The position numbers and the translations under genes are program-made. The notes beneath the pieces were generated by a model that worked only from the letters and a program-made list of their open reading frames with translations, searched no databases and was not told the DNA's origin. A stretch of 64,000 nucleotides of DNA from an uncultured Spirochaetales bacterium (GTDB lineage: Bacteria; Myxococcota_A; UBA9160; SMWR01): contig CAZBSV010000074.1 of NCBI GenBank assembly GCA_964494795.1, positions 1,053 through 65,052 of the forward strand. Direction: 5' to 3'. Within the stretch, counting starts at the first letter, position 1. Each line of letters opens with the position of its first letter. Below are positions 5,692 through 35,802 of the stretch, piece after piece.

Positions 5692-5802
5692 AGAACGTAC
5701 GCGGCTGCGCCTAAGCGTCGAACGGAGAGGCGGCGCCGGTGAGGTCGAGTGCCACAAACAACAACGCCCCCGGCACAAGTCAGCGAGGGCGAACAGGTTT
5801 AT

Positions 5803-5878
5803 TGGAGCGCGAGACGGGATTCGAACCCGCGACCCTCAGCTTGGGAAGCTGATGCTCTACCAACTGAGCTACTCGCGC
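5803..5878 (-). tRNA. tRNA-Gly (anticodon CCC)
   Basis: The minus strand reads GCGCGAGTAGCTCAGTTGGTAGAGCATCAGCTTCCCAAGCTGAGGGTCGCGGGTTCGAATCCCGTCTCGCGCTCCA. It folds as a cloverleaf with anticodon loop TTCCCAA and an encoded CCA. Confidence 0.95.
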
Positions 5879-6313: not shown

Positions 6314-7375
6314 TCAGTCGTCGAGCAGCTCGACCAGCAGATCTTCCGGCTCGTCGTCGTCGAACTTCGGCGGCCCCGCGCTGGCGCTCGCCGGGGAGCT
6401 GCTGAATCTTGGGATCGGCGCGCTACCGGCCAGTCGAGCGGACTTGACCATCGACGCCAACTCGGGATCCAGTTCGCTCAGGGTCTGTTGCAGTTCGGGG
6501 TCGGCCGCCTCGATCGGCGATCCCGCCCGGCTCGACGCGCCCGCGCCCGCGCCCGAAACCACCGCCGCCCAGCCGAGGTCTCGGTGTGCGCGCTCGACGT
6601 CGATGCGAGTCATCCGATTGCGGCCGCACAGGAAGGCCTCGAAGAGCGCATTGTCGGCCAGCGTGTTGATCAAGCCCGGGTATCCGCGCCCGAATTCGTG
6701 AAGCGCGATTACGGCTGCCCGATCGAGGATGTCCGGATCGCCGCCCGCCTGGCGGACGCGATGCGCGAGATAGCCGGAAGCGGCATCGAGATCGAGCGCA
6801 CCGAGTGCCGCGCGGACATCGATTCGGTGGGCGAGCGAAGGGTCCGCGCTCAGCGATCGATCGAGAATCTCCTGGCCAGCCAGCACGAGCGACAGCAAGC
6901 GCCGATCCTCGTACTCGAGCCTGAGCAGGCTGCAGACTTCTGCCAGCGCCCCGCGCTTGGCGAGTGCATGCGCGTCATCGATGATCAGCACTGGCTGTCG
7001 ACCTTCTTCACGAACGATGGCGAGCTGGTCGTAGATCTGCGCAATCATGCTCTCGCGCTCCGGCGCGGGGTCTTCGACGCCCAGCTGCCGGGCAAAACGC
7101 TTGAGCATCCAATTAGCGTCGGCCGCAGCGTCGAGCACCACCATCATGCTCGCTTCGAAAACCTCTTCTTCGAGACATTCGAGCAGCCGGCGCACCAGCA
7201 TCGTTTTGCCGCTGCCGGTCTCTCCCGTGAGCACGCAGAGGCCCTTGCCCTGGCGAACGCCCCGCTCCAGGCGTCGCAGTGCGCCTTCGTGCGGGTCGCT
7301 CGCGAAATACGCTTTCAGCTGCGGCTCGTTGCGAAAGGGATCTCCGCTGAGTCGGAAATGATGAAGATGATCCAC
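6314..7375 (-). CDS. ExeA/GspA/MshM-like AAA ATPase
   Basis: N-terminal FRLSGDPF motif. Walker A GETGSGKT, Walker B VLIIDDAH. RLLSLVLAGQ...L pattern as in ExeA-family secretion/pilus ATPases. Confidence 0.75.
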   Translation of the reverse strand: MDHLHHFRLSGDPFRNEPQLKAYFASDPHEGALRRLERGVRQGKGLCVLTGETGSGKTMLVRRLLECLEEEVFEASMMVVLDAAADANWMLKRFARQLGVEDPAPERESMIAQIYDQLAIVREEGRQPVLIIDDAHALAKRGALAEVCSLLRLEYEDRRLLSLVLAGQEILDRSLSADPSLAHRIDVRAALGALDLDAASGYLAHRVRQAGGDPDILDRAAVIALHEFGRGYPGLINTLADNALFEAFLCGRNRMTRIDVERAHRDLGWAAVVSGAGAGASSRAGSPIEAADPELQQTLSELDPELASMVKSARLAGSAPIPRFSSSPASASAGPPKFDDDEPEDLLVELLDD

Positions 7376-7386
7376 GTGCAGCTACC

Positions 7387-10300
7387 TCAGACGAAAGAAA
7401 TCTTCTTCTTGCGCCGCTTGGGGGTTTTCTCAGCCGATTCGTCGGCTTCGACGAGATCGCCAGCGTCCTCTTCGCCAACGGGCCCGGAAGAAGCGCCTTT
7501 CTCTGCCGCCCCGGATCTCGACTCCGCGCTGTCTGCAGCCTCGACCTCCGCGACGACATCGTCGAAGCTCTCCCAAATCGGAGGCGCCTCGGTGGCAGCG
7601 CCGGCTTGCGTCGCGGCCTTGGACTCGATCGCCGCGAGCTGGGTCTCGATCGGCGCGGACTGGGTCGCGATCGGCGCGGAATCGTCGAGATCCCCGAGGA
7701 ACTCGTCGAACGATTCGTATTCGTCGGTGTCAACGCTCGCGCCTTCGCGCGGATCGGATTCCTCGGACTTCTGGAGCTCTGCGAGCCGCGACGCAACGTC
7801 CGCGAAATTCGGATCCAATGCTTGAACTTCTTCATACGCCATGCGTGCCGACGCGATATCCCCGGTCGCTTCGTACGACTTTCCGAGATCCAACTTGAGC
7901 GCAAAAATCATCTCGTTGGAAAGCCCACTCGATGCGAGCGCTTCCTTGAGATGGCCAATCGCTTGCTCCGGCTCACCCGTGTCTTGCGCGCACATTCCCA
8001 GCAGATGGAGACAGCCGATGCGGCGCTCCGGGTCGCCCATCGCGAGCCGAAATTCTCCAATCGCATCGCTGAACAGACCCATCTCCCGATACGCGATTCC
8101 GAGATCGTAGTGGGCTTGATAATCTCCCTCAGACAGCGCCGCACTGACTCCCTTCTTGAACTCGGCAAAGACCGAAGCGAAGCCATCTTCCGAAGTGTTC
8201 CCGCGGCCCGCGGCTCGATCGATTCTCGACGAAGAAGCGCCCGCATCCCGATCGAGCGACTGGCTCAGTTCAGCGGCCAGATCGAACCCGAACGGGTCGC
8301 CGTCCGGTTCGGGTGCGTGGCCCTGTACGGGTGCGTGGCCCTGTTCGGGTGCGTGGTCGTGTTCGGCTGCGTGGTCGTCGGAAGCCTCGGCGAGAGCCGC
8401 AACGGAATCCGCGCGCCCTGCATCCGCTACCGACTCGCCCGGGGTCTCCGACACTTTGGGAACACTCGCGAGCGAACCCGTCTCATCCTGTTCGTCCGAC
8501 TGGGATTGGTCTTCCGCTGCATCGTCGCCGAGATTCGAGTCGAGATCGAGTTCGCCGGAATCCTCGAATCCGAGATCGGCCGCAAAATCTTTTGCGGCTT
8601 CGTCGCGCGCTCCCGCTGCAACGCTTTCTGCTTTCGCATCTCCGGCTTCAACGGCCTCGGCGCCTTTCAGCAGCGCGGTCTCGCGGGCGATCGCAGCGGT
8701 GGCGCCCAGATTGCCCTGCCAGTTCGCGAGATCCTCGCCGATATCCGATCCCGCCAACGCCGCCGATTCGCCATTCTCGGGCTCGGAATTTGCTGCCGTC
8801 GTCGCCGGAGCGCCGACCCCCGGTCCAGCATGATGCCCGCGCTGGGCGGAAATTTCCCCGAGCCGGACCATCGCGTGCGGGTGATTCGGCAGCAGCGCGA
8901 CGATCCGCGAATAGACGGCCTCAGCTTCATCGAGCAGACCCTGCTCCAGGTAGAAGTCCGCTTCTTCGAGATCCTCCGCGACCTTCTCCGGGCTTGCATT
9001 GCTTTCGCTCGGGCCGGAAAACGTCATCGCGTCGCTGTCGACTTCGGCGTCGTCGACGGCGTCCTCGTCGCCTGCAGCGCCGTGGCGGACCGAAATGTCG
9101 GTGATACTGATCTCGTCCAGCTCGGCGTCGCCGGCCGAACCCAGGCCGCCCGCTGCCGCGGCGAGACTCGATTGGCCTGTCGACGCGTCGCTTGCGGAGG
9201 GCTGCGCGAAGCTCGCGTCGTCGATGTCGATCTCGATGTCGATTCCGTGGACCGAAATCTCCGCGAGATCGAGTTCGGGTAGTTCCGAATCATCGAATCG
9301 TGCGGTTTCCGGATCCAGCGTCACACCGGCCGGATCATCGGGTATGGACAATTCATCCGAGGATTCCCCGCTGAGATCGTCTGCGATCCCCTGCCTACCG
9401 GGAGCCGATCCGGTCGCGCGGGGAGTCGGTCCGGCCGCGCGTGGAGCCGATTCGGTCGCGCGGGGAGTCGATCCGGCCACGCGGGGAGCCGATCCGGTCG
9501 CGCGGGGAGCCGGTCCGGCCGCGCGGGGAGTCGGTCCGGCCACGCGGGGAGCCGATCCGGCCGCGCGCGCAACCGACAGCTCGAGTTTCCCGGCGGCCGT
9601 CGGATCGAGCGCCGCGACTCGGCTGCGGAGCAACTCTGCCGAACCGACCTCTCCCGATTCGGCAGCCAATCTCGCCGCTCGAGACCACATCTCGACGGCC
9701 TTCGCGACGTCATCTCCCTCCGCGTAGGCCTCGCCGAGTTTTTCCAATGCCAGGCGGTGATCGAGATCGCGCGCGAGAATGCTCTCGAGGTTCGCGATGG
9801 CCTGATTGCGCTTCCCGTAGCGAAGATAGACGCTCGCTTCGGCCAGCAGCTGACCGACATCGATCTCGTCATCCCGTGGTCCTGAATCGCCCGCGGGCTT
9901 CTTAGCCAGCGAACCATTGGGCGAGAGGCGCGTCATTTCATTCGAGTCGGAGATCGGACTCAACGGACCCGAGCGAATATCGTCCAGATCTCCGTCGCGG
10001 CTCAGAATGCCGAACCCAGAATCGTCATCCGAAACCAGCAGGGTCGTATCGGACAGCAGGTCTCCATCGAGAAGCGTCGTCTCATCGCCAATCAACAGAT
10101 CGTCCAGCAGCTCATCGTCGCCGAGTTTTTCGTCGTCACTGATGTAACCGTTGGGTGTATCCTTCGAGCCGATCTCGTCGAGAGGCACGTAGCGCTGCAA
10201 GATCTCGCGAGTGCGTTCTTCATCGCCACGTTCGCGATAGAGCTCCGCCAACTCGCGATACAGAGCCACGAGATCCTCGTCGCGCTTCTCGAGCCGGTAG

Positions 10301-11028
10301 ACGTCGGCCAACAGCTCGAAGTGTTCAGGCGATCTGTCTTGTCCGAGCGCGCGCTTCGCGAGCGCCTCGGCGCGCTCGGTGGCACCTTGCTCGATCAGAT
10401 TCCGCGCATACCGGGCAATCGTCTCGACGCGACCGGGTTCGACCTCCAGAATCCGCTCGAACACCTTCCCCGCAGCTTCCGAGTCGCCCTGAAGCTCGAG
10501 CTCGCTGATGACGGCGTCGTATTCAGAGACGGCCTGTTCCTTCAGACCTTCCTGATGGAGCAGGTCGGCGACCTTGATTCGACTGGTTGTATTCGATGGA
10601 TCGATGGCGGCCATCTTCCGAAGCAGGCCGAGCGCTTCCTGCTTCTGGCCCGCCTTCCGATAGCCTTCCGCTGCTGCTTCGAGACAGCCGATCGCCTCGG
10701 CGGTCAGGCCCATGCGCTGATAGAGTTCCGCGAGCGGCTCGTAGGATGTGAATGTATCGGGTTGCAGATTTTGAATCTGCTTGAAGACCGCGACAGCACG
10801 AGCATCGAAGCCCTCGTGCATGAACTGATCGGCTACGACCGAATACGCACCGATCGCTTCACCGATCTGCCCCCAACGCCGGTAGGTGTCACCGAGCTCC
10901 AGACGCAACTTGGAGTCGCGCGGATCAAGCTTGAGCAGCTTGCCGAATTCATTGAGCGCCTTGTCCTTGGCGCCCTTTTGGGCGTGCTTGCGCGCCGCCT
11001 CCAGAATTTTTCGCTTGTCCGCCGCCAA
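7387..11028 (-). CDS. large multi-block TPR protein with acidic low-complexity linkers; SgmX-like by architecture and position
   Basis: 1213 aa. There are TPR blocks at the N-terminus, the middle and the C-terminus, separated by D/E-rich disordered regions. It sits downstream of pilQ on the same strand. The SgmX comparison is an inference from recalled Myxococcus xanthus locus organisation. Confidence 0.7.
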   Translation of the reverse strand: MAADKRKILEAARKHAQKGAKDKALNEFGKLLKLDPRDSKLRLELGDTYRRWGQIGEAIGAYSVVADQFMHEGFDARAVAVFKQIQNLQPDTFTSYEPLAELYQRMGLTAEAIGCLEAAAEGYRKAGQKQEALGLLRKMAAIDPSNTTSRIKVADLLHQEGLKEQAVSEYDAVISELELQGDSEAAGKVFERILEVEPGRVETIARYARNLIEQGATERAEALAKRALGQDRSPEHFELLADVYRLEKRDEDLVALYRELAELYRERGDEERTREILQRYVPLDEIGSKDTPNGYISDDEKLGDDELLDDLLIGDETTLLDGDLLSDTTLLVSDDDSGFGILSRDGDLDDIRSGPLSPISDSNEMTRLSPNGSLAKKPAGDSGPRDDEIDVGQLLAEASVYLRYGKRNQAIANLESILARDLDHRLALEKLGEAYAEGDDVAKAVEMWSRAARLAAESGEVGSAELLRSRVAALDPTAAGKLELSVARAAGSAPRVAGPTPRAAGPAPRATGSAPRVAGSTPRATESAPRAAGPTPRATGSAPGRQGIADDLSGESSDELSIPDDPAGVTLDPETARFDDSELPELDLAEISVHGIDIEIDIDDASFAQPSASDASTGQSSLAAAAGGLGSAGDAELDEISITDISVRHGAAGDEDAVDDAEVDSDAMTFSGPSESNASPEKVAEDLEEADFYLEQGLLDEAEAVYSRIVALLPNHPHAMVRLGEISAQRGHHAGPGVGAPATTAANSEPENGESAALAGSDIGEDLANWQGNLGATAAIARETALLKGAEAVEAGDAKAESVAAGARDEAAKDFAADLGFEDSGELDLDSNLGDDAAEDQSQSDEQDETGSLASVPKVSETPGESVADAGRADSVAALAEASDDHAAEHDHAPEQGHAPVQGHAPEPDGDPFGFDLAAELSQSLDRDAGASSSRIDRAAGRGNTSEDGFASVFAEFKKGVSAALSEGDYQAHYDLGIAYREMGLFSDAIGEFRLAMGDPERRIGCLHLLGMCAQDTGEPEQAIGHLKEALASSGLSNEMIFALKLDLGKSYEATGDIASARMAYEEVQALDPNFADVASRLAELQKSEESDPREGASVDTDEYESFDEFLGDLDDSAPIATQSAPIETQLAAIESKAATQAGAATEAPPIWESFDDVVAEVEAADSAESRSGAAEKGASSGPVGEEDAGDLVEADESAEKTPKRRKKKISFV
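9410..9570 (-). repeat. 21-nt tandem repeat, about 8 copies, in-frame in the TPR gene (heptapeptide PRxxGxx)
   Basis: Units ccggtcgcgcggggagtcggt / ccggccgcgcgtggagccgat ... encode PRVAGPT PRAAGPA PRATGSA PRVAGST PRATESA PRAAGPT PRATGSA. Confidence 0.9.
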
Positions 11029-11283: not shown

Positions 11284-11730
11284 TTAGGGCTCCAGGTGTT
11301 CGAGCAGCGCGTTGAGGCCGAGCCCATAGCCCATCGAGCCGAAGCCGCTGATCACTCCGAGCGCAATATCCGAAATGAAAGAGTGCCGGCGGAATTCCTC
11401 TCTCGCGAAGATGTTGGAGAGGTGAACCTCGACGATCGGAAGTCCCGTCGCAGCCAGGGCGTCGCGCAGGGTAACGCTCGTATGGGTCAATCCACCGGGA
11501 TTGATCAGGATGCCGTCGGCCCATGATTGCGCCTCTTGAATCCGATCCACCAGCGCTCCCTCGTAATTCGACTGGAAGAATTCGACCTCGGCTCCCCACT
11601 CCTTGGCGGCCGAGCTGAGATCCCCGTTGATCTCCTCCAGCGTGGTGGTGCCGTAGATGTCCGGCTCTCGGGAGCCGAGCAGGTTGAGATTCGGCCCGTG
11701 GACGACCAGGATCCGCTGTGGTTCAGGCAT
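11284..11730 (-). CDS. aroQ: type II 3-dehydroquinate dehydratase
   Basis: [21 protein letters not shown]...[16 protein letters not shown]...[21 protein letters not shown] 11730 with GAGGAG RBS. Confidence 0.9.
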
Positions 11731-11772
11731 CGCTCGATCTCCTCGCAAACGCCGTCCGCCGAGGCGCAGTTT

Positions 11773-12165
11773 TCAGAACTCGTGGCGGATGGCGTGCATG
11801 TGTCGCCGGATGAGATAGCGCGCCTTGCCGAGGTTGCCATCTCGCGCCAGCGCGAGAACCAGGAAATTCTCGTCGTCGACCGGCTGGAAGATCAGCATGA
11901 AGCCCTTGACGCGGATGATCGTCTCCTCCAGCGCGCCCCCACCGAGAGCATCCGAGGCGCGTCGGATGTCCGTCAGGATGCGGCCGAATTCGATGCCCGC
12001 GGTGCCGACCTCCACCGCTTGATTGGCGCCGCGCGAGTGCGCGGAACCAGCGGAATCATCCGCCGTAAATTCTTCGATCGCGATCCCGTCGTTGCCCATC
12101 AACACCGCGCCGATTCCGCCACCGCAGCCTTCGACGATCGCGCGGAGGGTCGCCTCGAAATTCAT
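11773..12165 (-). CDS. Roadblock/LC7 domain protein (MglB/MglC-like)
   Basis: 130 aa with a Robl_LC7-like pattern (GIGAVLMGNDGIAIEEF...IIRVKGFMLIFQPVDDENFLVLALARDGNLGKARYLIRR). ATG 12165 with GGGGAGGG RBS. The start overlaps the upstream stop (ATGA). Confidence 0.75.
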   Translation of the reverse strand: MNFEATLRAIVEGCGGGIGAVLMGNDGIAIEEFTADDSAGSAHSRGANQAVEVGTAGIEFGRILTDIRRASDALGGGALEETIIRVKGFMLIFQPVDDENFLVLALARDGNLGKARYLIRRHMHAIRHEF

Positions 12166-12755
12166 TGCATCCCTCCCCTGATATTCATGAGCCAACGCTC
12201 CAGTCGTTCAATCTTCCGCGGGCTGCGATTTCGAACCTTCGCCTGCACACCGCCAGACGATGATTCCATCAACGCGCGTATCCGCGAGGCACCGCGCTCG
12301 TCTCCTTGCTGCGCGAGCAATTGCGCGACGGTGCGAGTCGCGAAGTTCGAGTTCGGTGACGCGAATTCGTCGACGAGCTCGAGCTCTGTCTCCAACATCG
12401 CCTGCTGCGCGATTGCGTCGGCATCGATCACTTCGTCCGGATCGGTCTCCGCCGAATCGAATGCGCGTTCGAACTCTCCCGCGCTGAGATCCAGGCCAAA
12501 GACGCCGGCGGAATCGGACTGATCGGTGACTTCGACACCCAGGTTCGAATCGGCCCAGGACTCCATCACACGACGCGCTTGATCTACTTGCCCTTGATCC
12601 AGTAGCACCAGCGCCATCACGACGGCGCCCTCGGCGCTCTCCGGCTGCTCGTCGAGTCCGAGACGCGCCAACTGCTGCGCCTGATCGAGCTTTCCCGCTC
12701 GCCGATGCCCCTCGGCAAGCATCGCAAATTCCGCCCACTGCTTCGCATCACGCAC
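12162..12755 (-). CDS. small TPR-like / acidic protein of unknown function
   Basis: GTG 12755 preceded by GGGAGGGG. An N-terminal TPR-like helical pair (AEFAMLAEGHRRAGKLDQAQQLARLGL...ALVLLDQGQVDQARRVME) is followed by an acidic linker and a conserved-looking tail (FATRTVAQLLAQQGDERGASRI...KIERLERWL). It overlaps the aroB stop by 8 nt. Confidence 0.55.
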   Translation of the reverse strand: MRDAKQWAEFAMLAEGHRRAGKLDQAQQLARLGLDEQPESAEGAVVMALVLLDQGQVDQARRVMESWADSNLGVEVTDQSDSAGVFGLDLSAGEFERAFDSAETDPDEVIDADAIAQQAMLETELELVDEFASPNSNFATRTVAQLLAQQGDERGASRIRALMESSSGGVQAKVRNRSPRKIERLERWLMNIRGGMQ

Positions 12756-13911
12756 GCTTTGAGTTCCCCTCCCGCCAACGGGCCGCGGCGCCGGCAGAGC
12801 CAGACCGACGCCTCGCGGCGGGTAGCACATCGCGCGGGCTCAGCGGAAAAGTCTGGGCGCCGCCGATTCCGCGGAGCACGACGAAGCGAATCTTCGAATC
12901 TGCCATCTTCTTATCGACCTTCAAAGCATCGAGATAAGCACTTCGGGGATAATCTGGCAGCTCGCTCGGAAGCCCGAATCGCAGGACCAGACTGCGGATT
13001 CGCTCGGCAGTACCCGCGGGGGAGAACTCCAGCTCTTCGGACCGCCGCGCGGCGACCAGCATGCCGATCGAGACGGCTTCTCCGTGGAGCAGTCCTCGGT
13101 AGCGGGCCAGCTTTTCGATCGCGTGGGCCATCGTATGGCCAAAATTGAGGATCTGGCGCAGACCCGACTCGCGTTCGTCGCGCGCCACCACCTCCGCTTT
13201 GATCGCACAGGCGCGCTCGAGTGTGGGAATCAACTCCTGCGGATCGAGTTCCAGCAGGCGCTCGGCATTCTGCTCGAGGCGTTCGAAGAGTTGCAGATCC
13301 CAGATCGCGGCCGCTTTGATGACTTCCGCGAAACCCGCTGCCCGCTGCCGAACCGATAGCGTGCCCAGCGTTTGCGTGTCGATCCAAACCAGCCGAGGCT
13401 GATGGAACGCGCCCACGAGATTCTTCCCCTGCGGGAGATTGACGGCGACCTTGCCTCCGATGCTCGCGTCGACCATCGCAAGCACGGTCGTCGGTATCTG
13501 AATGAAGGGTACACCGCGCAGGTAGGAAGCAGCCGCAAAGCCGGCGAGATCACCGACCATTCCGCCTCCGAGTGCGACGATGGGCGTGGTCCGGTCCGCG
13601 CCGAACTCGATCAGCGCGTCCCAGAGCTTCGACAGCTGTCGCGGATTCTTGCTCGAATCACCGTCGGGAACCGAGATCTTGCGAACGCGGTAACCGGCCG
13701 CCCGGAGCGAGCGCTCGAGAATTCCAGCGTAGCGCCGGGAGACCGGCGGTACCGTCACCACGAATGCGCGACTCGACGGCGCGCAGTCGGAAATCGCGCG
13801 TCCCGCACCCGTTAGCGTTCCGACACCCAACTGGATCGGATAACTGCGCTCGCCGAGATCGACGGTCAGGCTGCCCACGATGCGGCCAGTTCGATCTTTG
13901 GCATCACTCAC
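12748..13911 (-). CDS. aroB: 3-dehydroquinate synthase
   Basis: ALGGGMVGDLAGFAAASYLRGVPFIQIPTTVLAMVDASIGGKVAVN and GHTMAHAIE motifs. GTGA overlap with aroK. Confidence 0.9.
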   Translation of the reverse strand: MSDAKDRTGRIVGSLTVDLGERSYPIQLGVGTLTGAGRAISDCAPSSRAFVVTVPPVSRRYAGILERSLRAAGYRVRKISVPDGDSSKNPRQLSKLWDALIEFGADRTTPIVALGGGMVGDLAGFAAASYLRGVPFIQIPTTVLAMVDASIGGKVAVNLPQGKNLVGAFHQPRLVWIDTQTLGTLSVRQRAAGFAEVIKAAAIWDLQLFERLEQNAERLLELDPQELIPTLERACAIKAEVVARDERESGLRQILNFGHTMAHAIEKLARYRGLLHGEAVSIGMLVAARRSEELEFSPAGTAERIRSLVLRFGLPSELPDYPRSAYLDALKVDKKMADSKIRFVVLRGIGGAQTFPLSPRDVLPAARRRSGSAGAAARWREGNSKRA

Positions 13912-14468
13912 ACGGGAGCCCTCTTCCCGGCTTGCGGCTCACGCCCCTCGCATTGTCGGCCGAGGCGGCGCCGTATCTCTTCGACCACCGCCTCGAGCGT
14001 CCGGCCATCGGTATCGACTTCGATTTCAGCCGTCTCGTACGCGTTCGCGCGCTTTGCGAGCAGGCCTTCGATTTTTGCCCGGCGCTCCGCGGCCGCAAGG
14101 CCTTCGAGCAGCGGTCGGCCCGAGCCGTCAGCGAGCCGGGCGAGCAGCGAATCCGGCGACGCCTTCAGATAGATCACGCTTCCCGTACGCTCCAGCAAGG
14201 CTGCAACACCCGATTGAGCGATCGCGCCGCCACCCAGAGCGACCACGGCATCTGCTTCGCTGAGTTCGTCGATCGCCTGGCGCTCACGACTGCGAAACCA
14301 CGACTCGCCCTCGGTCGCAAAAATCTCGGCGACGCTCATCCCCGCCGCGCGCTCGATCTCCGAATCCGTGTCGATGAAGCGCCGATCCAGCGATCGCGCC
14401 AGAAGCGCTCCCACGGCGGACTTGCCGGCTCCCATCATGCCCACCAACCAGATTGGCCGATTTCCCAT
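13908..14468 (-). CDS. aroK: shikimate kinase
   Basis: IWLVGMMGAGKSAVG Walker A, DTDSEIE, ALGGGA. The start at ATG 14468 is preferred over GTG 14480 but remains uncertain. Confidence 0.85.
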   Translation of the reverse strand: MGNRPIWLVGMMGAGKSAVGALLARSLDRRFIDTDSEIERAAGMSVAEIFATEGESWFRSRERQAIDELSEADAVVALGGGAIAQSGVAALLERTGSVIYLKASPDSLLARLADGSGRPLLEGLAAAERRAKIEGLLAKRANAYETAEIEVDTDGRTLEAVVEEIRRRLGRQCEGREPQAGKRAPV

Positions 14469-14486
14469 CGATTCGAACACTACATG

Positions 14487-14510
14487 AAAAGGGGGGGCCG
14501 AAGCCCCCCC
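14487..14510 (-). terminator. rho-independent terminator between pilQ and aroK
   Basis: The minus strand reads GGGGGGGC-TTCG-GCCCCCCC followed by TTTT: an 8-bp GC stem, a tetraloop and a T-run, 46 nt after the pilQ stop. Confidence 0.7.
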
Positions 14511-14555: not shown

Positions 14556-17500
14556 TCAGGCATCGTCCCCATCCGGCACGACCACGCGCGGGGTCACGAA
14601 AACCAGCAACTCCTTGCGGCTCTCGCCGGTTTCGTCGCTTCGGAACAGTGCGCCGAGCAGCGGGATCTTGTGGAGATAGGGGACGCGCGATTGCCGCTCC
14701 GACTTGTCGATCACGTAGATTCCACCCAGGACGAGGGTTTGCCCGTCCTTGATGAGGGTCATCGTCTTGACCTGGTTCTTCGCGATGGCCGGCGAACCGG
14801 TCAGCGTGAAGACGCTGTCGTCGGGGGCGTTGCGCGTCACCGCGATCTTCATGATGATGCTCTTGTTCGCCGTGATGTGCGGTGTCACGTCGAGTTTCAG
14901 CACTGCGTCGACGAATTCGAGCTGTGCATCGCCGTTCTCGAACGTCTGGAACGGAATCGAGACGCCTTGCTCGATCGTCGCCTTGCTGTTGTCGAGCGTT
15001 ACGACTCGCGGACTCGAAATCACCTTGCCGTCGCCATTGACTTCCGCCGCCTGCAACTGCAGATCCACGTTGAATGTATCGTCGAGGATCCAGCCAGCGA
15101 GATTCAAGAATCCGTTCGGGTTCGCGGTGATCGGGTTGGCGATCAGGGCATCATTCCCCGCGGTGGGTGTGTAGAGCCAGTTGTCAGGCAACTTGTCCGG
15201 ATCTGCTCCCAGCGCCCACACGGTGCCGAATTCCCGAGAGAAATCGAGGCTTGCTTCCACGATCTTCGCCTCGATCATGACCTGCGGCGTTTGCGTATCG
15301 ATCGCCTTGATCAGCGCCGTTGCCTCAGCGATCACCGAAGGAATGTCCTTGATGATCAGCGTGCTGGTGCGCTCGTCCGTCGTGACGGTTCCGCGCTCCG
15401 GTGTCAGCAGTTGCTTGACCATGGCGGAAACCTGTTTCACGTCGGCAAAATTGACGGGCTGAAGCTTGACGATCAGGTCTTCGAGCCTTTCCTTCGAGCG
15501 GCGCTCCTGCAGGCGCATTTCCTCTTCCTGCTGGATTTCGACGCTCGGCGCGATCCGCAGAATGTTCCCGACGCGCATGAATCCGAGCCCCTTGGTGAGC
15601 AGGACGACATCGAGAGCCTGATCCCAGGGAACCTCGACCAGGCGTACCGTCACCTTGCCCTTCACGTCGTCGCCTGCGATCACGTTGAGTTCCGACACTT
15701 CAGCGATCAGACGCAAGACGTCCGCGATGTCCACGTCCTTGAAATCAAGTGAGATCCGTCGGCCGATGTATTGCTTTTCGGCCGACAAACCGCCCGGCGT
15801 CAACAAGTCGATCGCGGATTCGGGCTCGATCGAGGCGGGCATCGATTCCGAACTGGAATCGGAAGCCGGCTGCTGCGAAACATCGGAGTCAGCACTGTCC
15901 GGCGTCGAGGCAGGCACGCCCTCCAGCTGAGCCTGGGCGAGCATCGCCTGATCCTGGCTCATCGCAGGCGGCGCAACGGCCACCGCTCCGGTGCGTGGGA
16001 AATCAATCACCAGCAGTGAACCGCGGCGCGTAATCTCCGGTTGCAGATCCGCAGCGCGCTGCACGACCAACCGAACTTCGGGTTCTTCCATTTCGGGCTG
16101 ATCGAATGCGGTGACCAGCGAGATCGGACCACCGGGCTCAGGCGTAATGCGCACGGCGGCCTCAGGGTCCACCTTCGCTCCTCGGAGCGAGATGATCACC
16201 GTCTCGGACGTCGGCTCGAACACCGCGTAGTCGACCGGCGAGTCAGCCAAGACCACGATGCGATCTCGAGTGTCCTGATTGTCGAACTCGATCCCGTAGA
16301 TCGAAACGATCGCGCTGCCAGTCTCGGCGATAGCGGACTCGATTTGCTGCGTCTCCGGAGCCTCCATGGAATCGACAGGCGCGTCGATCGGATCCGCCCA
16401 GGCAGCTACTTCAGCCGGCGTCAAATCTGCTTCGACGACCGGTGTCACTGCAGCGACTTCGCCTGCCGCGATCTCGTCGGCCTCGGCACCCAGCTCATCG
16501 GGCGAGCTGCTCTGCGTCTCCGCATTGCCAATTTCTGCGATCTCGACGGGAGTTGCCATTGGAGCAGCCCCTCCCGTGGCTGCAACCAGAGCGGAGTCGA
16601 TCTCCGGCCCGCGGCCGAGGGCAATCACCAATCCAGCGGCGGTCGGCACGACCCTGCGACCATCGAAGGGCTGCGCGGTACTGCCGCCATCGACCACGAC
16701 GCGGATCTTGTCGACGTGTTCGCCCACGCGGACCCTCGACACCAGCTCCGAATCCAGTTCAATGGTCGAAAGATCCGCTGCATTCTCCAGTTCGAGAAGG
16801 TCTACCACCAGCCGCGACGGATCTTCGAGGGTGAAGGTCATCACGCTCGAGATCAATCCGTTCGCGCGAAGCTTCACGAGGACGCCCTCGCCGGCCTTCT
16901 CGACGTCCACGCCCGTGAAGCGGGTCGCGGGTGTCGGGTCTGCAGCCGCCTCCATCACATCTGCAGCCGCCTCCACCACATCTGCAGGCGCCTCCATCAC
17001 ATCTGCAGCCGCCTCCACCACGTCTGCAGGCGCCTCCATCACATCTGCAGGCGCCTCCGTCAAATCTGGGGACTGCTCAGCCGCGCTAGATGCCCAGGGA
17101 TCGAAGGCATCTGCCTGCGCGTGTTCCAGCGTCTCGGCACCCGAGTCGAGCGCCGCAGCGGCGAGATCGCCAGAAATTCGAATCTGCAATCCACCAGCAA
17201 CGAATTGCACCTCGTGCTCCGCGGGCGCGTCGAGGAAGACTTCTACGCGGGTCATTGCGTCGCTGGTTCCCGTCGAATAGGGCGCCACCAAGACCTTCGC
17301 GACGAGCCCGTCGCCTACGATCACGGGCTCGATCGCTCGATCGGCGCGCGCCGCCAGATCCACGATGATGCGATCCGGGTTCGGTTGCCCGAATGCCGTG
17401 AAGATCGGGTGATCCGGTCCGACCAGCGTAACGATGGTGTCACTTCCATCACGCTCGACCTGGATCTCCGAAATGTCCTGGTCCTGCGACGACTGAGCCG

Positions 17501-17603
17501 TCGTAGATCCGGTGCCAGCGCAGCCAACGGTTCCGCCGGCCAGCAAGGCCGCGAGCGCCGTCACCGCCGCAATGTGGAACCGACCGCTTCTAAATCCCAG
17601 CAT
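14556..17603 (-). CDS. pilQ: type IV pilus secretin PilQ with N-terminal AMIN-type domains
   Basis: The C-terminal secretin domain (...ATIEQGVSIPFQT...TLVLGGIY...RVPYLHKIPLLGALFR...ELLVFVTPRVV) is preceded by an STN/N0-like region and repeated AMIN-like modules. ATG 17603 with a GAGGGGGGG RBS inside the pilP end. Confidence 0.9.
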   Translation of the reverse strand: MLGFRSGRFHIAAVTALAALLAGGTVGCAGTGSTTAQSSQDQDISEIQVERDGSDTIVTLVGPDHPIFTAFGQPNPDRIIVDLAARADRAIEPVIVGDGLVAKVLVAPYSTGTSDAMTRVEVFLDAPAEHEVQFVAGGLQIRISGDLAAAALDSGAETLEHAQADAFDPWASSAAEQSPDLTEAPADVMEAPADVVEAAADVMEAPADVVEAAADVMEAAADPTPATRFTGVDVEKAGEGVLVKLRANGLISSVMTFTLEDPSRLVVDLLELENAADLSTIELDSELVSRVRVGEHVDKIRVVVDGGSTAQPFDGRRVVPTAAGLVIALGRGPEIDSALVAATGGAAPMATPVEIAEIGNAETQSSSPDELGAEADEIAAGEVAAVTPVVEADLTPAEVAAWADPIDAPVDSMEAPETQQIESAIAETGSAIVSIYGIEFDNQDTRDRIVVLADSPVDYAVFEPTSETVIISLRGAKVDPEAAVRITPEPGGPISLVTAFDQPEMEEPEVRLVVQRAADLQPEITRRGSLLVIDFPRTGAVAVAPPAMSQDQAMLAQAQLEGVPASTPDSADSDVSQQPASDSSSESMPASIEPESAIDLLTPGGLSAEKQYIGRRISLDFKDVDIADVLRLIAEVSELNVIAGDDVKGKVTVRLVEVPWDQALDVVLLTKGLGFMRVGNILRIAPSVEIQQEEEMRLQERRSKERLEDLIVKLQPVNFADVKQVSAMVKQLLTPERGTVTTDERTSTLIIKDIPSVIAEATALIKAIDTQTPQVMIEAKIVEASLDFSREFGTVWALGADPDKLPDNWLYTPTAGNDALIANPITANPNGFLNLAGWILDDTFNVDLQLQAAEVNGDGKVISSPRVVTLDNSKATIEQGVSIPFQTFENGDAQLEFVDAVLKLDVTPHITANKSIIMKIAVTRNAPDDSVFTLTGSPAIAKNQVKTMTLIKDGQTLVLGGIYVIDKSERQSRVPYLHKIPLLGALFRSDETGESRKELLVFVTPRVVVPDGDDA
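16939..17068 (-). repeat. 21-nt tandem repeat, about 6 copies, in-frame in pilQ (heptapeptide ADVxEAx)
   Basis: tctgcagccgcctccatcaca / tctgcagccgcctccaccaca / tctgcaggcgcctccatcaca ... encode APADVMEAPADVVEAAADVMEAPADVVEAAADVMEAAAD. Confidence 0.9.
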
Positions 17604-17608
17604 CGAAC

Positions 17609-18199
17609 TCACCCCCCCTCACTACGACGGATCCGCATTTCGATATCTTTTTTCGTCACGTTGCCCAGATAATCCACATAGGTCTCGTTGATGACGACCA
17701 AGTTGTCATCAATCGTTGTTACCATCCCTTCGTTCTTTCCGATTCGCGTGCCCTTCGCGACGATGTAACTATGACCAGCCGGGTCCTCTACCAACGCCCT
17801 CGCGGATCCCGTATTCCAGACCACCGCAACGATCGATAGTTGGCTGACGTCGAATTGCTCCAGCGGTCCGCCAGCCACTTCTTGGCTCGAGATTTCCTTC
17901 CTCTCCCACTCGAACGACCGGAACGGATCCCGCAGGCCCTCCTTGTCGTAGAGCATTCCGGGCCCGGTTCCGGCGAAGCTGCCATCGATCGCCGGTGCGA
18001 CGGGAACCGCGGCGACTTGACTCGGCTGCACGGCGGGCGCCGCCGCGGCTTCACCCTTCTTCGCCTTCCGCTCGGCTACGCGCGCGTTTAGCTTGGCGCG
18101 CTCCTGTTGAAACTCGGCCTGGGTCGGCTGGTTGGCCTCTTCTTTGCAACCGACCAGCGCCAACAATCCGATCGAGATCGCGATGGCTGCAATTTTCAC
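17609..18199 (-). CDS. pilP: type IV pilus assembly lipoprotein PilP
   Basis: GTG 18199 with GGAGGGG RBS. Lipobox LLALVGC. C-terminal PilP domain (LRDPF...LEQFDVSQLSIVAVVWNTGSARALVEDPAGHSYIVAKGTRIGKNEG). Confidence 0.75.
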   Translation of the reverse strand: MKIAAIAISIGLLALVGCKEEANQPTQAEFQQERAKLNARVAERKAKKGEAAAAPAVQPSQVAAVPVAPAIDGSFAGTGPGMLYDKEGLRDPFRSFEWERKEISSQEVAGGPLEQFDVSQLSIVAVVWNTGSARALVEDPAGHSYIVAKGTRIGKNEGMVTTIDDNLVVINETYVDYLGNVTKKDIEMRIRRSEGG

Positions 18200-20508: not shown

Positions 20509-20834
20509 GATTCACAGCCTCCGTCGGCCTGGGACTGCCTTTGGGGTGAGTTCTGACTTGCGCCTGCGCCTCGCGAAGCATCCGAGCCGCGGTCGCTTTG
20601 GAGTGCTTCGCTTCGAGAGACTGCCGATCCCATCGGGGCGGTTCCGAAGACCTGAGACTTTTCGGAAATCTTCATTCCGAGCGCGAGCAGGATCTTGCGC
20701 TTGGTATCGAGACGGCAGGCACGGCCGGCTTCGACGCGATCGATCGTCAAGGTGGAGAGGCCCGCCTTCCGAGCGAGCTCGGCCTTGCTCATCATGAGCG
20801 ATTCGCGATAGCGCTGGACGTTATTGCTCGGCAC
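20505..20834 (-). CDS. XRE-family helix-turn-helix protein
   Basis: 109 aa. HTH_3-like segment (MSKAELARKAGLSTLTIDRVEAGRACRLDTKRKILLALG). GTG 20834 preceded by GGGGGAGGGGG. Confidence 0.7.
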   Translation of the reverse strand: MPSNNVQRYRESLMMSKAELARKAGLSTLTIDRVEAGRACRLDTKRKILLALGMKISEKSQVFGTAPMGSAVSRSEALQSDRGSDASRGAGASQNSPQRQSQADGGCES

Positions 20835-21080
20835 CGCCCCCTCCCCCTGCCTGTCGGATGCCAGCGGCTGATGGCTCGAGCCCCAGGTTCGACGTTCGAG
20901 AGTATCGGCGTGCTGTTACGGGGACTTGAGAGAACCTGCGTCCGGTGCATGGTGTGGCGGATCACCGCCTCGGATGCGCAACTAGCCGGCAATCGAGCGG
21001 GCGAGGTGGGGGTATGGGGGCAGGTCTTCGGCCTGGGGCTGCCTCAGGATCCCGCGGAAAATCACCGATACGCAGGCACG

Positions 21081-22439
21081 ATGCCCGATCGCATTTTGCT
21101 CATCGAGCCCGATCTGAACACGCGAGACGGCCAGCTGATCGCGTTGTCCGAGCTCGGTTTCGATGCCGTGGCAGTCCTCGACGCCGAGCAGGCCTTCCGG
21201 GCGATCGCGGAGGCGCCACCGGACATCATCCTCTGCGACGCCTTCGCCCCGGGCACGGATGATCTCGAACTCGTTTGGCAGCTCTGCAGGCGCGCGCCCG
21301 AAGCAACCCTGTTGGTGACCTCCGCACCGAGCGACTACGAGGCAGCGATGGAGGTCGCCCTGCGAGGCGCTCACGATCACATCAGCAAACCGCTGCGTCC
21401 CTCCGAGCTTCGATTGAAGCTGCGCAACGCGAAAGAGCGGGCGCGGCTGAGCGGCCAATATCGGCTTCTGCGCTGGGAAATTGCCAAAGTGATCGGCGAG
21501 CGTCCGATCGTCGCAGCGTCCGGCCCGATGATTCGGCTGCTCGAGAATATGGAGCGGGCGGCTGGCTGCGAGAGAACGCTCCTGCTGGTCGGCGAATCGG
21601 GAACCGGAAAAGAGGTCATGGCGCGCGCGATTCACGCCCTTTCGAGCCGACGCCATCACAGCTTCGTCGCCGTGCAATGCGCGGCAAGATCGGCCGAGTC
21701 GATATTGGCAGAGCTTTTTGGCGACCGTTCCGCGGCGCCGAATTACGGGGAGCGAACGCAGCGGGGCCTCTTTCAAGACGCCGAGCGGGGCAGCCTGTTT
21801 CTGGACGAAGTCGGAGAGCTGCCGATCCGCGTTCAAAACGAACTCCTCCGCGTGTTGAACGAAAAGCAGGCCGAATCGAGTTCGGAGCCCAGATCCGGCA
21901 CGGTCGATATCCGAATCATCGCCGCTACGGCCCGAAACCTCCGACAAGACGTCTCCGATCGCCGGTTCGAAGCGGAGCTCTTCGAGCACCTCGATCCCCT
22001 CCGACTGGATATCCCTGCTCTACGGGATCGACGCGAGGACATTCCCCTTCTCGTCGATCATTTTCTCGACCACTACCGGCACGAGCTGGTGAAGCCAATC
22101 CGCGGGATCGCGGAAGACGCGCTCGAACGACTCGTCGCGCATCCGTGGTTCGGAAACATTCGCGAGCTGAAGAACGTGATCGAATCGGCCGTCATGTTCG
22201 CGCGCGGAGAGCGGATCGCGATCCAGGATCTTCCACCCCGAATCCTGCTGGCTCCTGCGGCAAGCGACCCGCTCCGCGACGATCTCTGCCTCAAGCGAAG
22301 TCGTCGAGCCTTCGAAATCGACATGATTCGAAGGGCACTGCGCGCCACCGGCGGCAACCGCACCCACGCCGCGAAACGGCTCGAAATCAGCCATCGCGCG
22401 CTGCTCTACAAGATCAAAGAGTATGGGATCGACGCCTGA
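21081..22439 (+). CDS. response regulator with AAA+ bacterial enhancer-binding-protein domain and Fis-type HTH, lacking the GAFTGA motif
   Basis: REC (DIILCD acceptor, ISKPL). Walker A GESGTGKE, Walker [11 protein letters not shown]-terminal GGNRTHAAKRLEISHRALLYKIKEYG. Where GAFTGA is expected (after ELFG) the sequence is DRSAAPNYGERTQ. Confidence 0.85.
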   Translation: MPDRILLIEPDLNTRDGQLIALSELGFDAVAVLDAEQAFRAIAEAPPDIILCDAFAPGTDDLELVWQLCRRAPEATLLVTSAPSDYEAAMEVALRGAHDHISKPLRPSELRLKLRNAKERARLSGQYRLLRWEIAKVIGERPIVAASGPMIRLLENMERAAGCERTLLLVGESGTGKEVMARAIHALSSRRHHSFVAVQCAARSAESILAELFGDRSAAPNYGERTQRGLFQDAERGSLFLDEVGELPIRVQNELLRVLNEKQAESSSEPRSGTVDIRIIAATARNLRQDVSDRRFEAELFEHLDPLRLDIPALRDRREDIPLLVDHFLDHYRHELVKPIRGIAEDALERLVAHPWFGNIRELKNVIESAVMFARGERIAIQDLPPRILLAPAASDPLRDDLCLKRSRRAFEIDMIRRALRATGGNRTHAAKRLEISHRALLYKIKEYGIDA

Positions 22440-29841: not shown

Positions 29842-31074
29842 TTACTGTGCGTTGGGCTCGGAGGAAGAGTCTTCGGAGTTCTCAGCGGCCCGCTCGAGCT
29901 CCTGCCACGAGGTGTGGCGAAAGCGCAGGACCGCGAAGCCGAGCGGCGTCACGATGAGCCAGAAAGCGGCGTGCAACAGCGTCCCAAGCGCCACCGCCAA
30001 CTCCGGTGACACGCCGAAGGGCTCGAGGGCGATCCGGCAAGCCGCGTGGTAGGTGCCGAAAAAACCCGGTGCGGACGGGATCGCAACCGCCATCCCGACG
30101 GCAGCCAGCACGATCCAAGCCGCCACCAGCGTTTCGAACGGCCCGCCGAAATCGATCCGGAGAGCCCAAAAGCCCGCCAACATGGGGACCGTGGAAGCGA
30201 CGAACCAGACCAAGATCGAGTGAAGTCCGATCCAGAAGAGGTGAGATCCGCCCTTCAACGCGCCGAGGCCCTCGCCAAATCGGCTCAGGACATCGACCAG
30301 ATACTTGCCGAAGCGCGCCGGGAAGGGTCGGAGCAGCCAGCTCGCGGCGCCGATCACGAGATGGGGCGCGAGCCGGAGGGTCAAGACCCCGATCAGCGGC
30401 GCGGCCGCGACCGGAATCAGCGCATACGCGACCCGCGCGAGCACGTCCTCGCTGCCCGAGCCGCGCAGCGAAATCGCGAGGCAGGCGAGCCCGAGCACCA
30501 TGACGGTGTCGATCACGCGCTCGAGGATGACCGTGCCAAACAGAGCCGCGGACGACGCTCCGACCTCGCGGCTGAGATACATCGGCCGAATGATCTCTCC
30601 CAGTCGCAGCGGAAAAATATTGTTCGCCATGAATCCGACCGCCGTGGCCCGAAACAACGGGCGGACGCCGATCGGCTGAATGGGGTCCGTCAGATGGCGC
30701 CAGCGCATGGCGCGCAGCTGGATCACCGCGAGATACGAGGGAAGCGAGAGTCCGATCAGCAGCAACCAGTTCGCTTGGCGAAGCGTCGACGCAACCAGGG
30801 CGATGTCCACGTCCCGAATCACGTACCAGATGAAGCCAGCCGTGATCCCGAAACCCAGCCAGACGCGGTAATCCCGGATCCGGCTGCGACGGCGGGGAGT
30901 CTCGCTTCGAAGCGCTGTGCGTCCGCCGACCGTCAGGGCAGACCCAGGATGGCACGAGCCGCAGCGACATCGGTCGCGATCTGCGCTCTCAGCGCGTCGG
31001 CGCCCGAGAATCGCCGCTCTTCCCGCAAGCGCTCTACGAACGACATCTCGATGCGGCGCCCGTAGGCGTCGCAC
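29842..31074 (-). CDS. flippase-like (UPF0104 / lysylphosphatidylglycerol-synthase TM region) membrane protein
   Basis: Multi-TM protein with RAMRWRHL, FMANNIFPLRLGEIIRP and ERVIDT motifs. The only in-frame start upstream of TM1 is GTG 31074, which overlaps the ribF 3' end by 142 nt, so the start is uncertain. Confidence 0.6.
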   Translation of the reverse strand: MRRLRAPHRDVVRRALAGRAAILGRRRAESADRDRCRCGSCHPGSALTVGGRTALRSETPRRRSRIRDYRVWLGFGITAGFIWYVIRDVDIALVASTLRQANWLLLIGLSLPSYLAVIQLRAMRWRHLTDPIQPIGVRPLFRATAVGFMANNIFPLRLGEIIRPMYLSREVGASSAALFGTVILERVIDTVMVLGLACLAISLRGSGSEDVLARVAYALIPVAAAPLIGVLTLRLAPHLVIGAASWLLRPFPARFGKYLVDVLSRFGEGLGALKGGSHLFWIGLHSILVWFVASTVPMLAGFWALRIDFGGPFETLVAAWIVLAAVGMAVAIPSAPGFFGTYHAACRIALEPFGVSPELAVALGTLLHAAFWLIVTPLGFAVLRFRHTSWQELERAAENSEDSSSEPNAQ

Positions 31075-31883
31075 TCGAGATCGATCAGGTGCGCCTCGGC
31101 CTGCAGGCGACCGCCGCCGCCGAAGGTGGGCCGGGTACCCACGTTCATTACGGCCGGCAGTTCGACACCGCGCTCGGGAACTCCGTCATCGATGAAGGCC
31201 ACGCGACCGACGTAGACTCCTGCGCCCGGAAGGATCTCGTTCTCGGGCTCGAGATTTGCGGTCGGGAATCCCAGCGTGCGCCCCCTCTGGTCGCCTCGGG
31301 TGACGCGGCCGCGGACACTATAAGCGCGACCCAGCATCCGGCCGGCCTCTTCGACGCGCGACTCGACCACCAGCTTGCGGATTCGCGTCGAGTTCACGTC
31401 GCTCCCATCCATCGTGACTTCCGGAATGATCGTGACGGAAAATTCCAGCTTCGGCCCGAGTTCCGTCAGCAGCCTCATCGACCCTTCGCGATCTCGGCCG
31501 AAATGGAAGTCGTAGCCGACATAGACCTCGACCGGTCGAACCCGGCGATAGAGGATCTCACGAATGAATGTTTCGGCAGACGTCGAGGCGAACGCCGTGT
31601 CGAATTTTTCGACGATGACCGCATCGATGCCCGCCTGATCGAGCAGTTCGATCCTCTGTTCGAGGGTCGTGAGCAAGCGCGGCGCCTGGTCCGGTCTCAG
31701 CACCTTGATCGGGTGCGGTTCAAAGGTGAAGACGACGGACGTTCCCCCGCACGCGCGTGCGCGCGCCACGACGAGATCCGTGATCGCGCGATGGCCCACG
31801 TGCAATCCATCGAAGTTGCCGACCGTGACGACGGGTCTGTGCAAGGGACGGCTCAGCGCACCGCTTCCCGCGAAATACTCCAA
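30933..31883 (-). CDS. ribF: bifunctional riboflavin kinase / FMN adenylyltransferase
   Basis: VVTVGNFDGLHVGHRAI, FTFEPHP, LGFPTANL and HLIDL motifs. A TTG 31883 start is proposed; the ORF extends to 32009. Confidence 0.85.
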   Translation of the reverse strand: MEYFAGSGALSRPLHRPVVTVGNFDGLHVGHRAITDLVVARARACGGTSVVFTFEPHPIKVLRPDQAPRLLTTLEQRIELLDQAGIDAVIVEKFDTAFASTSAETFIREILYRRVRPVEVYVGYDFHFGRDREGSMRLLTELGPKLEFSVTIIPEVTMDGSDVNSTRIRKLVVESRVEEAGRMLGRAYSVRGRVTRGDQRGRTLGFPTANLEPENEILPGAGVYVGRVAFIDDGVPERGVELPAVMNVGTRPTFGGGGRLQAEAHLIDLECDAYGRRIEMSFVERLREERRFSGADALRAQIATDVAAARAILGLP

Positions 31884-31898
31884 TGCTAGACTCCCGGC

Positions 31899-34880: not shown

Positions 34881-34883
34881 CGA

Positions 34884-35672: not shown

Positions 35673-35802
35673 TCCCCTCCCCTCGATGCCCCTATGCGAC
35701 TCTATCCCTCTCCAGCTCGATGACTCTATGCCGCGCCGTCCGGCTCGGAAACTCTATGCGGTGATGCCGCTTCGATCAGCCGCTCGCGACCGGATCGGCG
35801 TT

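Follow-up and report, generated by a model that had tools for sequence, protein, structure and literature searches.

MglC is a homodimeric Roadblock-fold adaptor of the MglA/MglB/RomR front-rear polarity module, which controls the polarity of type IV pili, and to our knowledge it has been characterised solely in Myxococcus xanthus. The present analysis concerns two adjoining small genes, here called X and Y, of which Y is MglC-like, in 64,000 nucleotides of DNA from an uncultured Spirochaetales bacterium (GTDB lineage Bacteria; Myxococcota_A; UBA9160; SMWR01; NCBI GenBank assembly GCA_964494795.1, contig CAZBSV010000074.1, positions 1,053 to 65,052 of the forward strand); this whole stretch is referred to as the window, and coordinates are window positions unless another locus is named. 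A second protein of relevance is SgmX (MXAN_5766), a tetratricopeptide repeat (TPR) activator of type IV pilus formation. Regarding its interactions, MglC binds RomR's C-terminal helix and also MglB (PMC4719450, PMC10329633, PMC12719032): a positively charged KRR patch (K104, R106, R110) binds the acidic RomR helix (PMC10329633, PMC12719032) and an FDI patch (F25, D26, I28) binds MglB (PMC4719450, PMC10329633), with MglB R115 contacting MglC D26 and I28 in a published model (PMC10329633). The definition of MglC is that of an 'orphan' paralog of MglB (MglB_orphan1), its gene not lying beside mglA, and McLoon et al. reported that every genome with MglB_orphan1 encodes a group-1 MglA (PMC4719450). 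The RomR/MglC complex leaves the GTPase-activating protein (GAP) activity of MglB and of MglB/RomY unaltered (PMC10329633). The MglB/RomY pair is a precedent for a Roadblock protein with a small accessory protein (PMC9481161), and RomY's N-terminal domain (residues 8-89) reportedly matches no domain model (PMC9481161).

On balance, the pair in the window is best read as an MglC ortholog (Y) belonging to an uncultured lineage of Myxococcota type, together with a lineage-specific accessory or adaptor partner of the MglC dimer (X), a reading towards which we lean with modest confidence. Regarding X itself, a lineage-specific partner of MglC is the most likely role, the association with Y being suggested by the pairing of the two genes. 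The two genes and the signals that join them are the following.

12162 to 12755, minus strand: gene X, an open reading frame (ORF) with a GTG start encoding a 197-residue cytoplasmic TPR-family protein (Pfam TPR_4/TPR_19)
11773 to 12165, minus strand: gene Y, encoding a 130-residue Roadblock-fold protein, the MglC ortholog (match to PDB 7CT3, hidden Markov model (HMM) scores, AlphaFold2/Foldseek)
12162 to 12165, minus strand: ATGA, in which the start codon of Y overlaps the stop codon of X (read from the sequence)
12170 to 12178, minus strand: Shine-Dalgarno-like GGGGAGGGA within the 3' end of X, ending 4 nucleotides (nt) 5' of the Y ATG (read from the sequence)
12766 to 12773, minus strand: Shine-Dalgarno-like GGGAGGGG within the 3' end of aroB, ending 10 nt 5' of the X GTG (read from the sequence)

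Y has a full-length collinear match to M. xanthus MglC (PDB 7CT3) with an E-value of 1.4e-14 as a single sequence, at about 31-33% identity (31% by tblastn, 33% in the alignment), and its N-terminus (MNF...) agrees with those of its homologs and with that of MglC (MSF...). The match strengthened to 1.4e-26 with a Y-family profile of 18 clade sequences from which MglC had been left out; with the same profile the next-best Roadblock proteins had E-values of 0.008 or worse and MglB was not matched at E <= 10. Alignment of the Y family to M. xanthus MglB by hhalign gave a probability of 0.8%. Conversely, an HMM built from 120 clusters of Myxococcaceae MglC gave scores of 69.8 bits for Y and 52.9-81.7 bits for 79 clade orthologs, and did not match MglB even with filters off. 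The AlphaFold2 model of Y (predicted template modelling score, pTM, 0.72) has the Roadblock topology alpha-beta-beta-alpha-beta-beta-beta-alpha, and the top Foldseek matches of the model were all Roadblock proteins, 7CT3 having the best E-value and MglB giving TM scores of 0.70-0.73. Pfam detected no family in Y at E <= 0.01, including Robl_LC7 (PF03259), and the precomputed Pfam entry was '-' for all listed homologs; the Roadblock assignment therefore rests on the PDB match, the HMM scores and the predicted fold. The preliminary description of this DNA, made from sequence alone, had named Y a Roadblock/LC7 protein; the Roadblock fold holds and can be narrowed to an MglC-like protein, but the Pfam family call is absent, and Y lies closest to MglC and not among unrelated Roadblock families. 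As judged from these sequence comparisons, Y is an MglC ortholog and not an MglB-type GAP.

For comparison across genomes, one genome per GTDB species was scanned, which gave 122 loci with a relative of Y, of which the best 80, all from uncultured organisms, were kept. The names of isolates in this set (UBA9160, UBA4427, PRO3) suggest that the loci may belong to the GTDB lineage Myxococcota_A/UBA9160. Alignment of the 80 clade sequences located the two interface patches of MglC in Y.

11806 to 11826, minus strand: Y residues K114, R116 and R120, corresponding to the MglC KRR patch (K104, R106, R110)
12082 to 12093, minus strand: Y residues N25, D26, G27 and I28, corresponding to the MglC FDI patch (F25, D26, I28)

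The KRR patch is almost without variation (K in 79/80 sequences, both arginines in 80/80). Regarding the FDI patch, 79/80 sequences retain D26 and 70/80 retain I28, while F25 is present in one of the 80 and is replaced by N in the window. Compared with M. xanthus MglC, Y also carries an insertion before helix 2 (residues 35-52), modelled with low confidence (predicted local distance difference test score, pLDDT, below 50 at residues 38-48); this insertion varies between 4 and 14 residues across the clade, in proteins of 119-131 residues.

Searches by tblastn with M. xanthus MglA and MglB, using queries that agreed with PDB entries 6HJH and 6H5B, detected neither gene in the window, nor in the 80 related loci, of which flanks of up to 10 kb were covered. 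The lack of a GTPase gene had been noted at the outset and presented as a missing partner; the absence is borne out, but Y is MglC, an 'orphan' by definition, so no nearby GTPase is expected, and likely partners are known. These are expected to be RomR and MglB, encoded elsewhere, by analogy with M. xanthus.

The pairing of X with Y could be scored in 76 of the loci, the other four starting too near a contig end, and an HMM search of the upstream ORFs detected an X-family ORF directly upstream of Y in all 76, so that the pair was not missing from any relative scored; tblastn alone detected X in about 55 of the 80 loci. The stop codon of X overlaps the start codon of Y by 4 nt in 65/76 loci, and a 1-nt gap separates them in three more, in agreement with the translational coupling first proposed from the ATGA overlap in the window. 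Nearly all of the 80 loci that are long enough have the order pilQ, aroK, aroB, [X], Y, aroQ, SgmX-like gene and AAA_22 gene. Three loci (L033, L077 and L078) keep pilQ, X, Y and aroQ and gave no aroK or aroB match; the X-mglC pair is thus more stable than the surrounding aro genes. Across the set Y diverges to 46% identity, with mean p-distances of 0.65 for X and 0.41 for Y, and it follows from this divergence that adjacency and coupling are kept by selection and not by recent common ancestry.

Regarding the start of X, the GTG at 12755 precedes the aroB end by 8 nt (GTGCGTGA), so the overlap with the aroB stop and the strong ribosome-binding site upstream of it (GGGAGGGG) stand as first reported. 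From this GTG, X has 197 residues, the same length as most of its close homologs, and the GTG lies just upstream of the first conserved helix of the family (AEFAML/FAxLAE); ATG 12830 and ATG 12722 are less likely starts because the GTG gives the homolog length and keeps this helix.

X is acidic overall (isoelectric point, pI, 4.5) and on inspection of its sequence has no signal peptide or hydrophobic segment. Pfam detected TPR repeats only, in residues 9-71, with TPR_4 at 27.3 bits (cut-off 27) and TPR_19 at 25.2 bits (cut-off 25). The assignment of X as TPR-like is sustained by the family, 24/25 members of which match TPR_19, and by a high-confidence model, while the window protein itself lies just above the Pfam cut-offs. 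In the AlphaFold2 model, residues 2-71 form four helices (pLDDT 94-98; overall pTM 0.39), and shorter helices follow at residues 92-101, 112-126, 136-149, 153-167 and 178-194, joined by low-confidence linkers; a Foldseek search with the model returned generic TPR proteins only, none at E <= 0.001. Three elements of the protein can be placed on the DNA.

12543 to 12752, minus strand: X residues 2-71, two TPR repeats of four helices (AlphaFold2, TPR Pfam matches)
12378 to 12494, minus strand: X residues 88-126, conserved helices of acidic character that carry the motif ELExAFxxAE (hmmalign of 77 X sequences)
12174 to 12224, minus strand: X residues 178-194, C-terminal amphipathic helix LExWLxNL in a basic tail (hmmalign, AlphaFold2)

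The most conserved positions of X lie not in the TPR repeats but in the acidic ELExAFxxAE helix, where E94, A98, F99, A102 and A116 are each kept in 93-98% of the 77 sequences. The LExWLxNL helix has L185, E186, W188 and L189 conserved in 85-89%; the tryptophan (W188) is present in 89% of the 77 sequences and invariant in an alignment of 25. Charge is unevenly distributed, residues 76-135 having a pI of 4.05 with 17 D/E against 1 K/R, and residues 136-197 being basic (pI 11.8). A word-index search detected 128 homologs of X, and when 1.84 billion representatives were searched exhaustively with HMMER, 373 relatives were returned at E <= 0.001, those listed being nearly all of 110-340 residues. 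The 20 relatives that were sampled all derive from metagenomes or metagenome-assembled genomes (MAGs) labelled Myxococcota or Deltaproteobacteria, none being from a cultured organism. With the X HMM, no relative of X was detected in the rest of the window or the Myxococcus locus, and since this HMM matches only X in the window, X as a paralog of SgmX was ruled out. Natural fusions of X and Y were also sought among the longer family members (266-373 residues), but these merely have longer acidic or proline-rich linkers, and one is a frameshift artefact.

In the preferred reading, X and Y would be translated from one mRNA in a fixed ratio, by way of the overlapping stop and start codons, and X would bind to the dimer of MglC in a stoichiometric complex, acting as its accessory subunit or adaptor. 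Proteins of the pilus or of the polarity system, for instance the SgmX-like protein whose gene lies downstream, might find a further docking surface in the two TPR repeats of X. We infer that an element of X contacts Y, and likewise any link to SgmX. Several points weigh against this reading. The physical association of X and Y is a prediction drawn from the gene pairing; X matches no known family or fold besides generic TPR; X evolves fast relative to Y; and F25 of the FDI motif is gone in this lineage, so that MglB binding may differ. Furthermore, in a coarse mirror-tree comparison with aroB and aroQ controlled, the distance matrices of X and Y correlated at 0.30, not above the 0.57 of X and aroB, and hence gave no X-Y-specific signal of co-evolution.

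One alternative is that X is unrelated to Y, being a generic TPR protein, for instance a chaperone-like factor of pilus assembly or housekeeping, whose overlap with Y reflects operon compaction only. The exclusively generic TPR matches of X and the lack of a specific co-evolution signal are compatible with it, as are the functioning of Myxococcus MglC without X and the overlaps at other junctions of the operon (aroK/aroB by 4 nt, aroB/X by 8 nt). However, compaction does not readily account for an X that stays beside Y in 76/76 loci while Y diverges to 46% identity, for the exact overlap in 65 of these, or for a pair that remains joined where aroK and aroB are not matched; moreover, wherever an X gene could be placed in a genome locus, it was upstream of Y and in pil context, and the sampled family members are all metagenome- or MAG-derived. 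We therefore regard an unrelated X as unlikely.

A bolder proposal makes X an unrecognised subunit of the polarity module, namely a TPR adaptor that would dock stoichiometrically on the MglC dimer, using ELExAFxxAE at the KRR cleft or the basic Trp helix on the side of the FDI patch, take the place of the RomR-MglC-MglB connection or gate it, and link MglC directly to the adjacent pilus regulators; we attach a low probability to it. More doubtful is the specific possibility that X replaces or competes with a ligand of MglC, its acidic helix taking the place of the RomR C-terminus at KRR or its basic Trp tail that of MglB at the acidic FDI side, so that the polarity module would be rewired. The charges fit: the strongly acidic residues 76-135, which hold the most conserved motif, are complementary to the KRR cleft, and the basic residues 136-197 with their conserved Trp to the acidic FDI side, which binds a basic KRK patch of MglB. 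RomR likewise has a tryptophan, W394, in its acidic C-terminal helix, and this residue is essential for MglC binding (PMC12719032); in the clade the KRR patch is invariant while F25 on the MglB-binding side is changed. However, a primer-derived fragment of the RomR C-terminus (KASREVIEKIAWEVV) aligns unconvincingly with the LERWL helix of X, sharing the Trp but not the spacing, and retention of RomR explains the invariant KRR patch equally well. A motif like that of the RomR C-terminus (acidic helix with E-K-x-x-W Trp context, taken from the same fragment) was not detected in the 1.2 Mb of locus sequence.

Very improbable, finally, is the view of Y as an MglB-like regulator of the GAP or guanine nucleotide exchange factor (GEF) type, acting on a Ras-like GTPase that is encoded elsewhere and is the key missing partner, with X as co-factor: Y shares the Roadblock fold with MglB, accessory proteins of a Roadblock GAP exist in the form of RomY with MglB, and the layout of X resembles that of RomY (about 190 residues, conserved in the N-terminal domain and with a motif at the C-terminus; PMC9481161), but Y is specifically of the MglC type without a sequence match to MglB, RomR/MglC leaves the GAP activity of MglB and MglB/RomY unchanged (PMC10329633), and MglC works through RomR and MglB (PMC4719450, PMC10329633), with the RomR-binding patch invariant in Y. 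The general statement of the preliminary description that Roadblock proteins, MglC among them, are GAP/GEF-type partners of small GTPases is accordingly withdrawn for MglC, which is an adaptor binding RomR and MglB (PMC4719450, PMC10329633, PMC12719032).

With Y as MglC and X as its probable partner, the genes around the pair can be considered. The gene arrangement described earlier is present as stated, with all genes from pilQ to aroQ on the minus strand, and the order on that strand is pilQ, aroK, aroB, X, Y, aroQ, the SgmX-like TPR gene and the AAA_22 ATPase gene. The neighbours of the pair are as follows.

14556 to 17612, minus strand: pilQ, secretin (Pfam Secretin, AMIN, STN, Secretin_N; pilMNOP upstream)
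13908 to 14480, minus strand: aroK, shikimate kinase (Pfam SKI, E 5e-43)
12748 to 13911, minus strand: aroB, 3-dehydroquinate synthase, its stop overlapped by the start of X (Pfam DHQ_synthase, DHQS_C)
11284 to 11748, minus strand: aroQ, type II dehydroquinase (Pfam DHquinase_II, E 7e-58, match from residue 12)
7387 to 11028, minus strand: SgmX-like TPR protein of 1213 residues (NCBIfam NF052243 (SgmX), E 6.6e-70)
6314 to 7375, minus strand: AAA_22 (ExeA-like) ATPase, downstream of the SgmX-like gene (Pfam AAA_22, E 8e-21)

The true start of aroQ is probably the ATG at 11730, 42 nt past the Y stop. From the sequence, Y is predicted to share a transcript with X and to be coupled to it in translation, both lying in a compact aroK-aroB-X-Y-aroQ unit. 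A promoter scan detected no sigma-70-like site, and terminator-like hairpins were no more frequent than in shuffled sequence. Between the stop of pilQ and the start of aroK (14492-14510, minus strand) is a G+C-rich hairpin (GGGGGGGCTTCGGCCCCCC) followed by CTTTTC, which could be a terminator or attenuator dividing pilQ from the aroK-aroB-X-Y-aroQ unit. The sole RNA gene detected in the window by an Rfam scan and ARAGORN is a tRNA-Gly(CCC) (5803-5878, minus strand).

The SgmX-like gene and the AAA_22 gene downstream of aroQ, which went unmentioned in the preliminary description, extend the resemblance to Myxococcus. The SgmX-like protein, encoded 0.7 kb downstream of X-Y, is collinear with SgmX over its N-terminal 270 residues, and its score of 237 bits is far below the equivalog cut-off of 1800; the AAA_22 gene starts 11 nt past the SgmX-like gene. 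In Myxococcus (L081 and L082) the order is pilMNOPQ, a gene encoding 214 residues, mglC, efp, accB, accC, sgmX (1057 residues), AAA_22 and a TamB-like gene, concordant with the M. xanthus locus tags MXAN_5770 for mglC, 5769 for efp and 5767-5768 for the acc genes (PMC4719450, PMC4320627, PMC2330069). The early statement that mglC lies a few genes downstream of pilQ in M. xanthus is thus accurate, mglC being the second gene after pilQ in L081. Downstream of mglC the sgmX-AAA_22 pair recurs both in most of the 80 loci and in Myxococcus (L081 13352-17494); since the window has both genes there too, its entire block shares synteny with the pil-mglC-sgmX region of Myxococcus. The ATPase conserved as the partner of sgmX appears not to have been characterised. 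The Myxococcus gene between pilQ and mglC (L081 9313-9957, in the position of MXAN_5771) encodes 214 residues with a lipoprotein-type signal (...AFGSVSC) and matches no Pfam family; homology of X to this lipoprotein-like product was considered and rejected (BLASTP E 6).

Upstream of pilQ are pilP, pilO, pilN, pilM, pilR, pilS, pilC, pilT, pilB and ribF, and with this gene set from pilB to pilQ the window holds a complete type IVa pilus cluster. Besides the pilS/pilR pair (25532-22444), a second sigma-54 activator of 613 residues (receiver, AAA and HTH_8 domains) is encoded at 20598-22439 on the plus strand, divergent from pilM. The pilus cluster is bordered by ribF (30933-32009, minus strand), the gene for FAD synthetase/riboflavin kinase; M. 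xanthus, Anaeromyxobacter and Geobacter were reported to have the same association (PMC2330069). An LPG_synthase_TM gene is present between ribF and pilB. Further out, the region 32980-37140 (minus strand) has three SPFH/Band 7 paralogs in a row, with a gene for an NfeD-type membrane protein upstream (35803-37140). Tandem repeats of 21 bp, encoding 7-residue units, occur at two places: in the N-terminal region of pilQ (16939-17068, 6.2 copies, units ADVMEAP/ADVVEAA) and in the SgmX-like gene (9400-9567, 8 copies, PRxxGxx-type units such as PRATGSA).

Taken together, the window and the 80 species-level genomes show that the mglC-sgmX-AAA_22 block beside the pilus genes predates the split of Myxococcus and a large uncultured lineage, and that mglC in this lineage has a dedicated co-translated TPR partner gene, which the model organism is without. 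A full-text literature search returned no paper tying MglC to a TPR partner or to aroB. Y is a further member of a known family, and the only new element is the uncharacterised coupled X beside MglC; no new kind of system is indicated, and the puzzle of the missing GTPase is settled by existing knowledge of MglC. If X does bind MglC, it would be a concrete new component, and the lineage a natural variant in which to ask which MglC interfaces are essential.

Regarding the comparison with known systems, the presence of aroK and aroB right after a secretin gene is shared with E. coli K-12 (hofMNOPQ-aroK-aroB), where damX-dam follow aroB, whereas X-mglC-aroQ-sgmX-AAA_22 follow here. An aroK-aroB pair after a pilQ-type secretin gene is old and widespread, and the nesting of X and Y in a metabolic run, at first singled out as notable, reflects ordinary ancient synteny. 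The SgmX-like protein resembles SgmX in its N-terminal 270 residues and in having the AAA_22 gene next to its own, and differs in a divergent middle region with 7-residue tandem repeats. Y resembles M. xanthus MglC (MXAN_5770; PDB 7CT3/7CY1) in the Roadblock fold, the K/R/R patch, D26 and I28, the lack of an adjacent mglA and the location of its gene downstream of pilQ and upstream of sgmX and the AAA_22 gene. It differs in the replacement of F25, the clade signature DGNLGKARYLIRR and the insertion before helix 2, and its gene is preceded by a coupled TPR gene and flanked by aroB and aroQ, whereas mglC in Myxococcus is preceded by a separate lipoprotein-like gene and followed by efp-accBC. MglB, the MglA GAP (PDB 6HJM, 6H5B, 3T12), has the Roadblock fold and belongs to the same M. 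xanthus polarity module, but has no detectable sequence similarity to Y, which carries MglC-specific interface residues and has no mglA adjacent. The closest functional analogy is the bipartite GAP MglB/RomY, likewise a Roadblock protein with an accessory protein of about 190 residues in which a conserved domain at the N-terminus is joined by a motif at the C-terminus (PMC9481161). X matches TPR whereas RomY reportedly matches no domain model, which argues against X being RomY, and RomY is unlinked to its partner (PMC9481161), whereas X is coupled to MglC.

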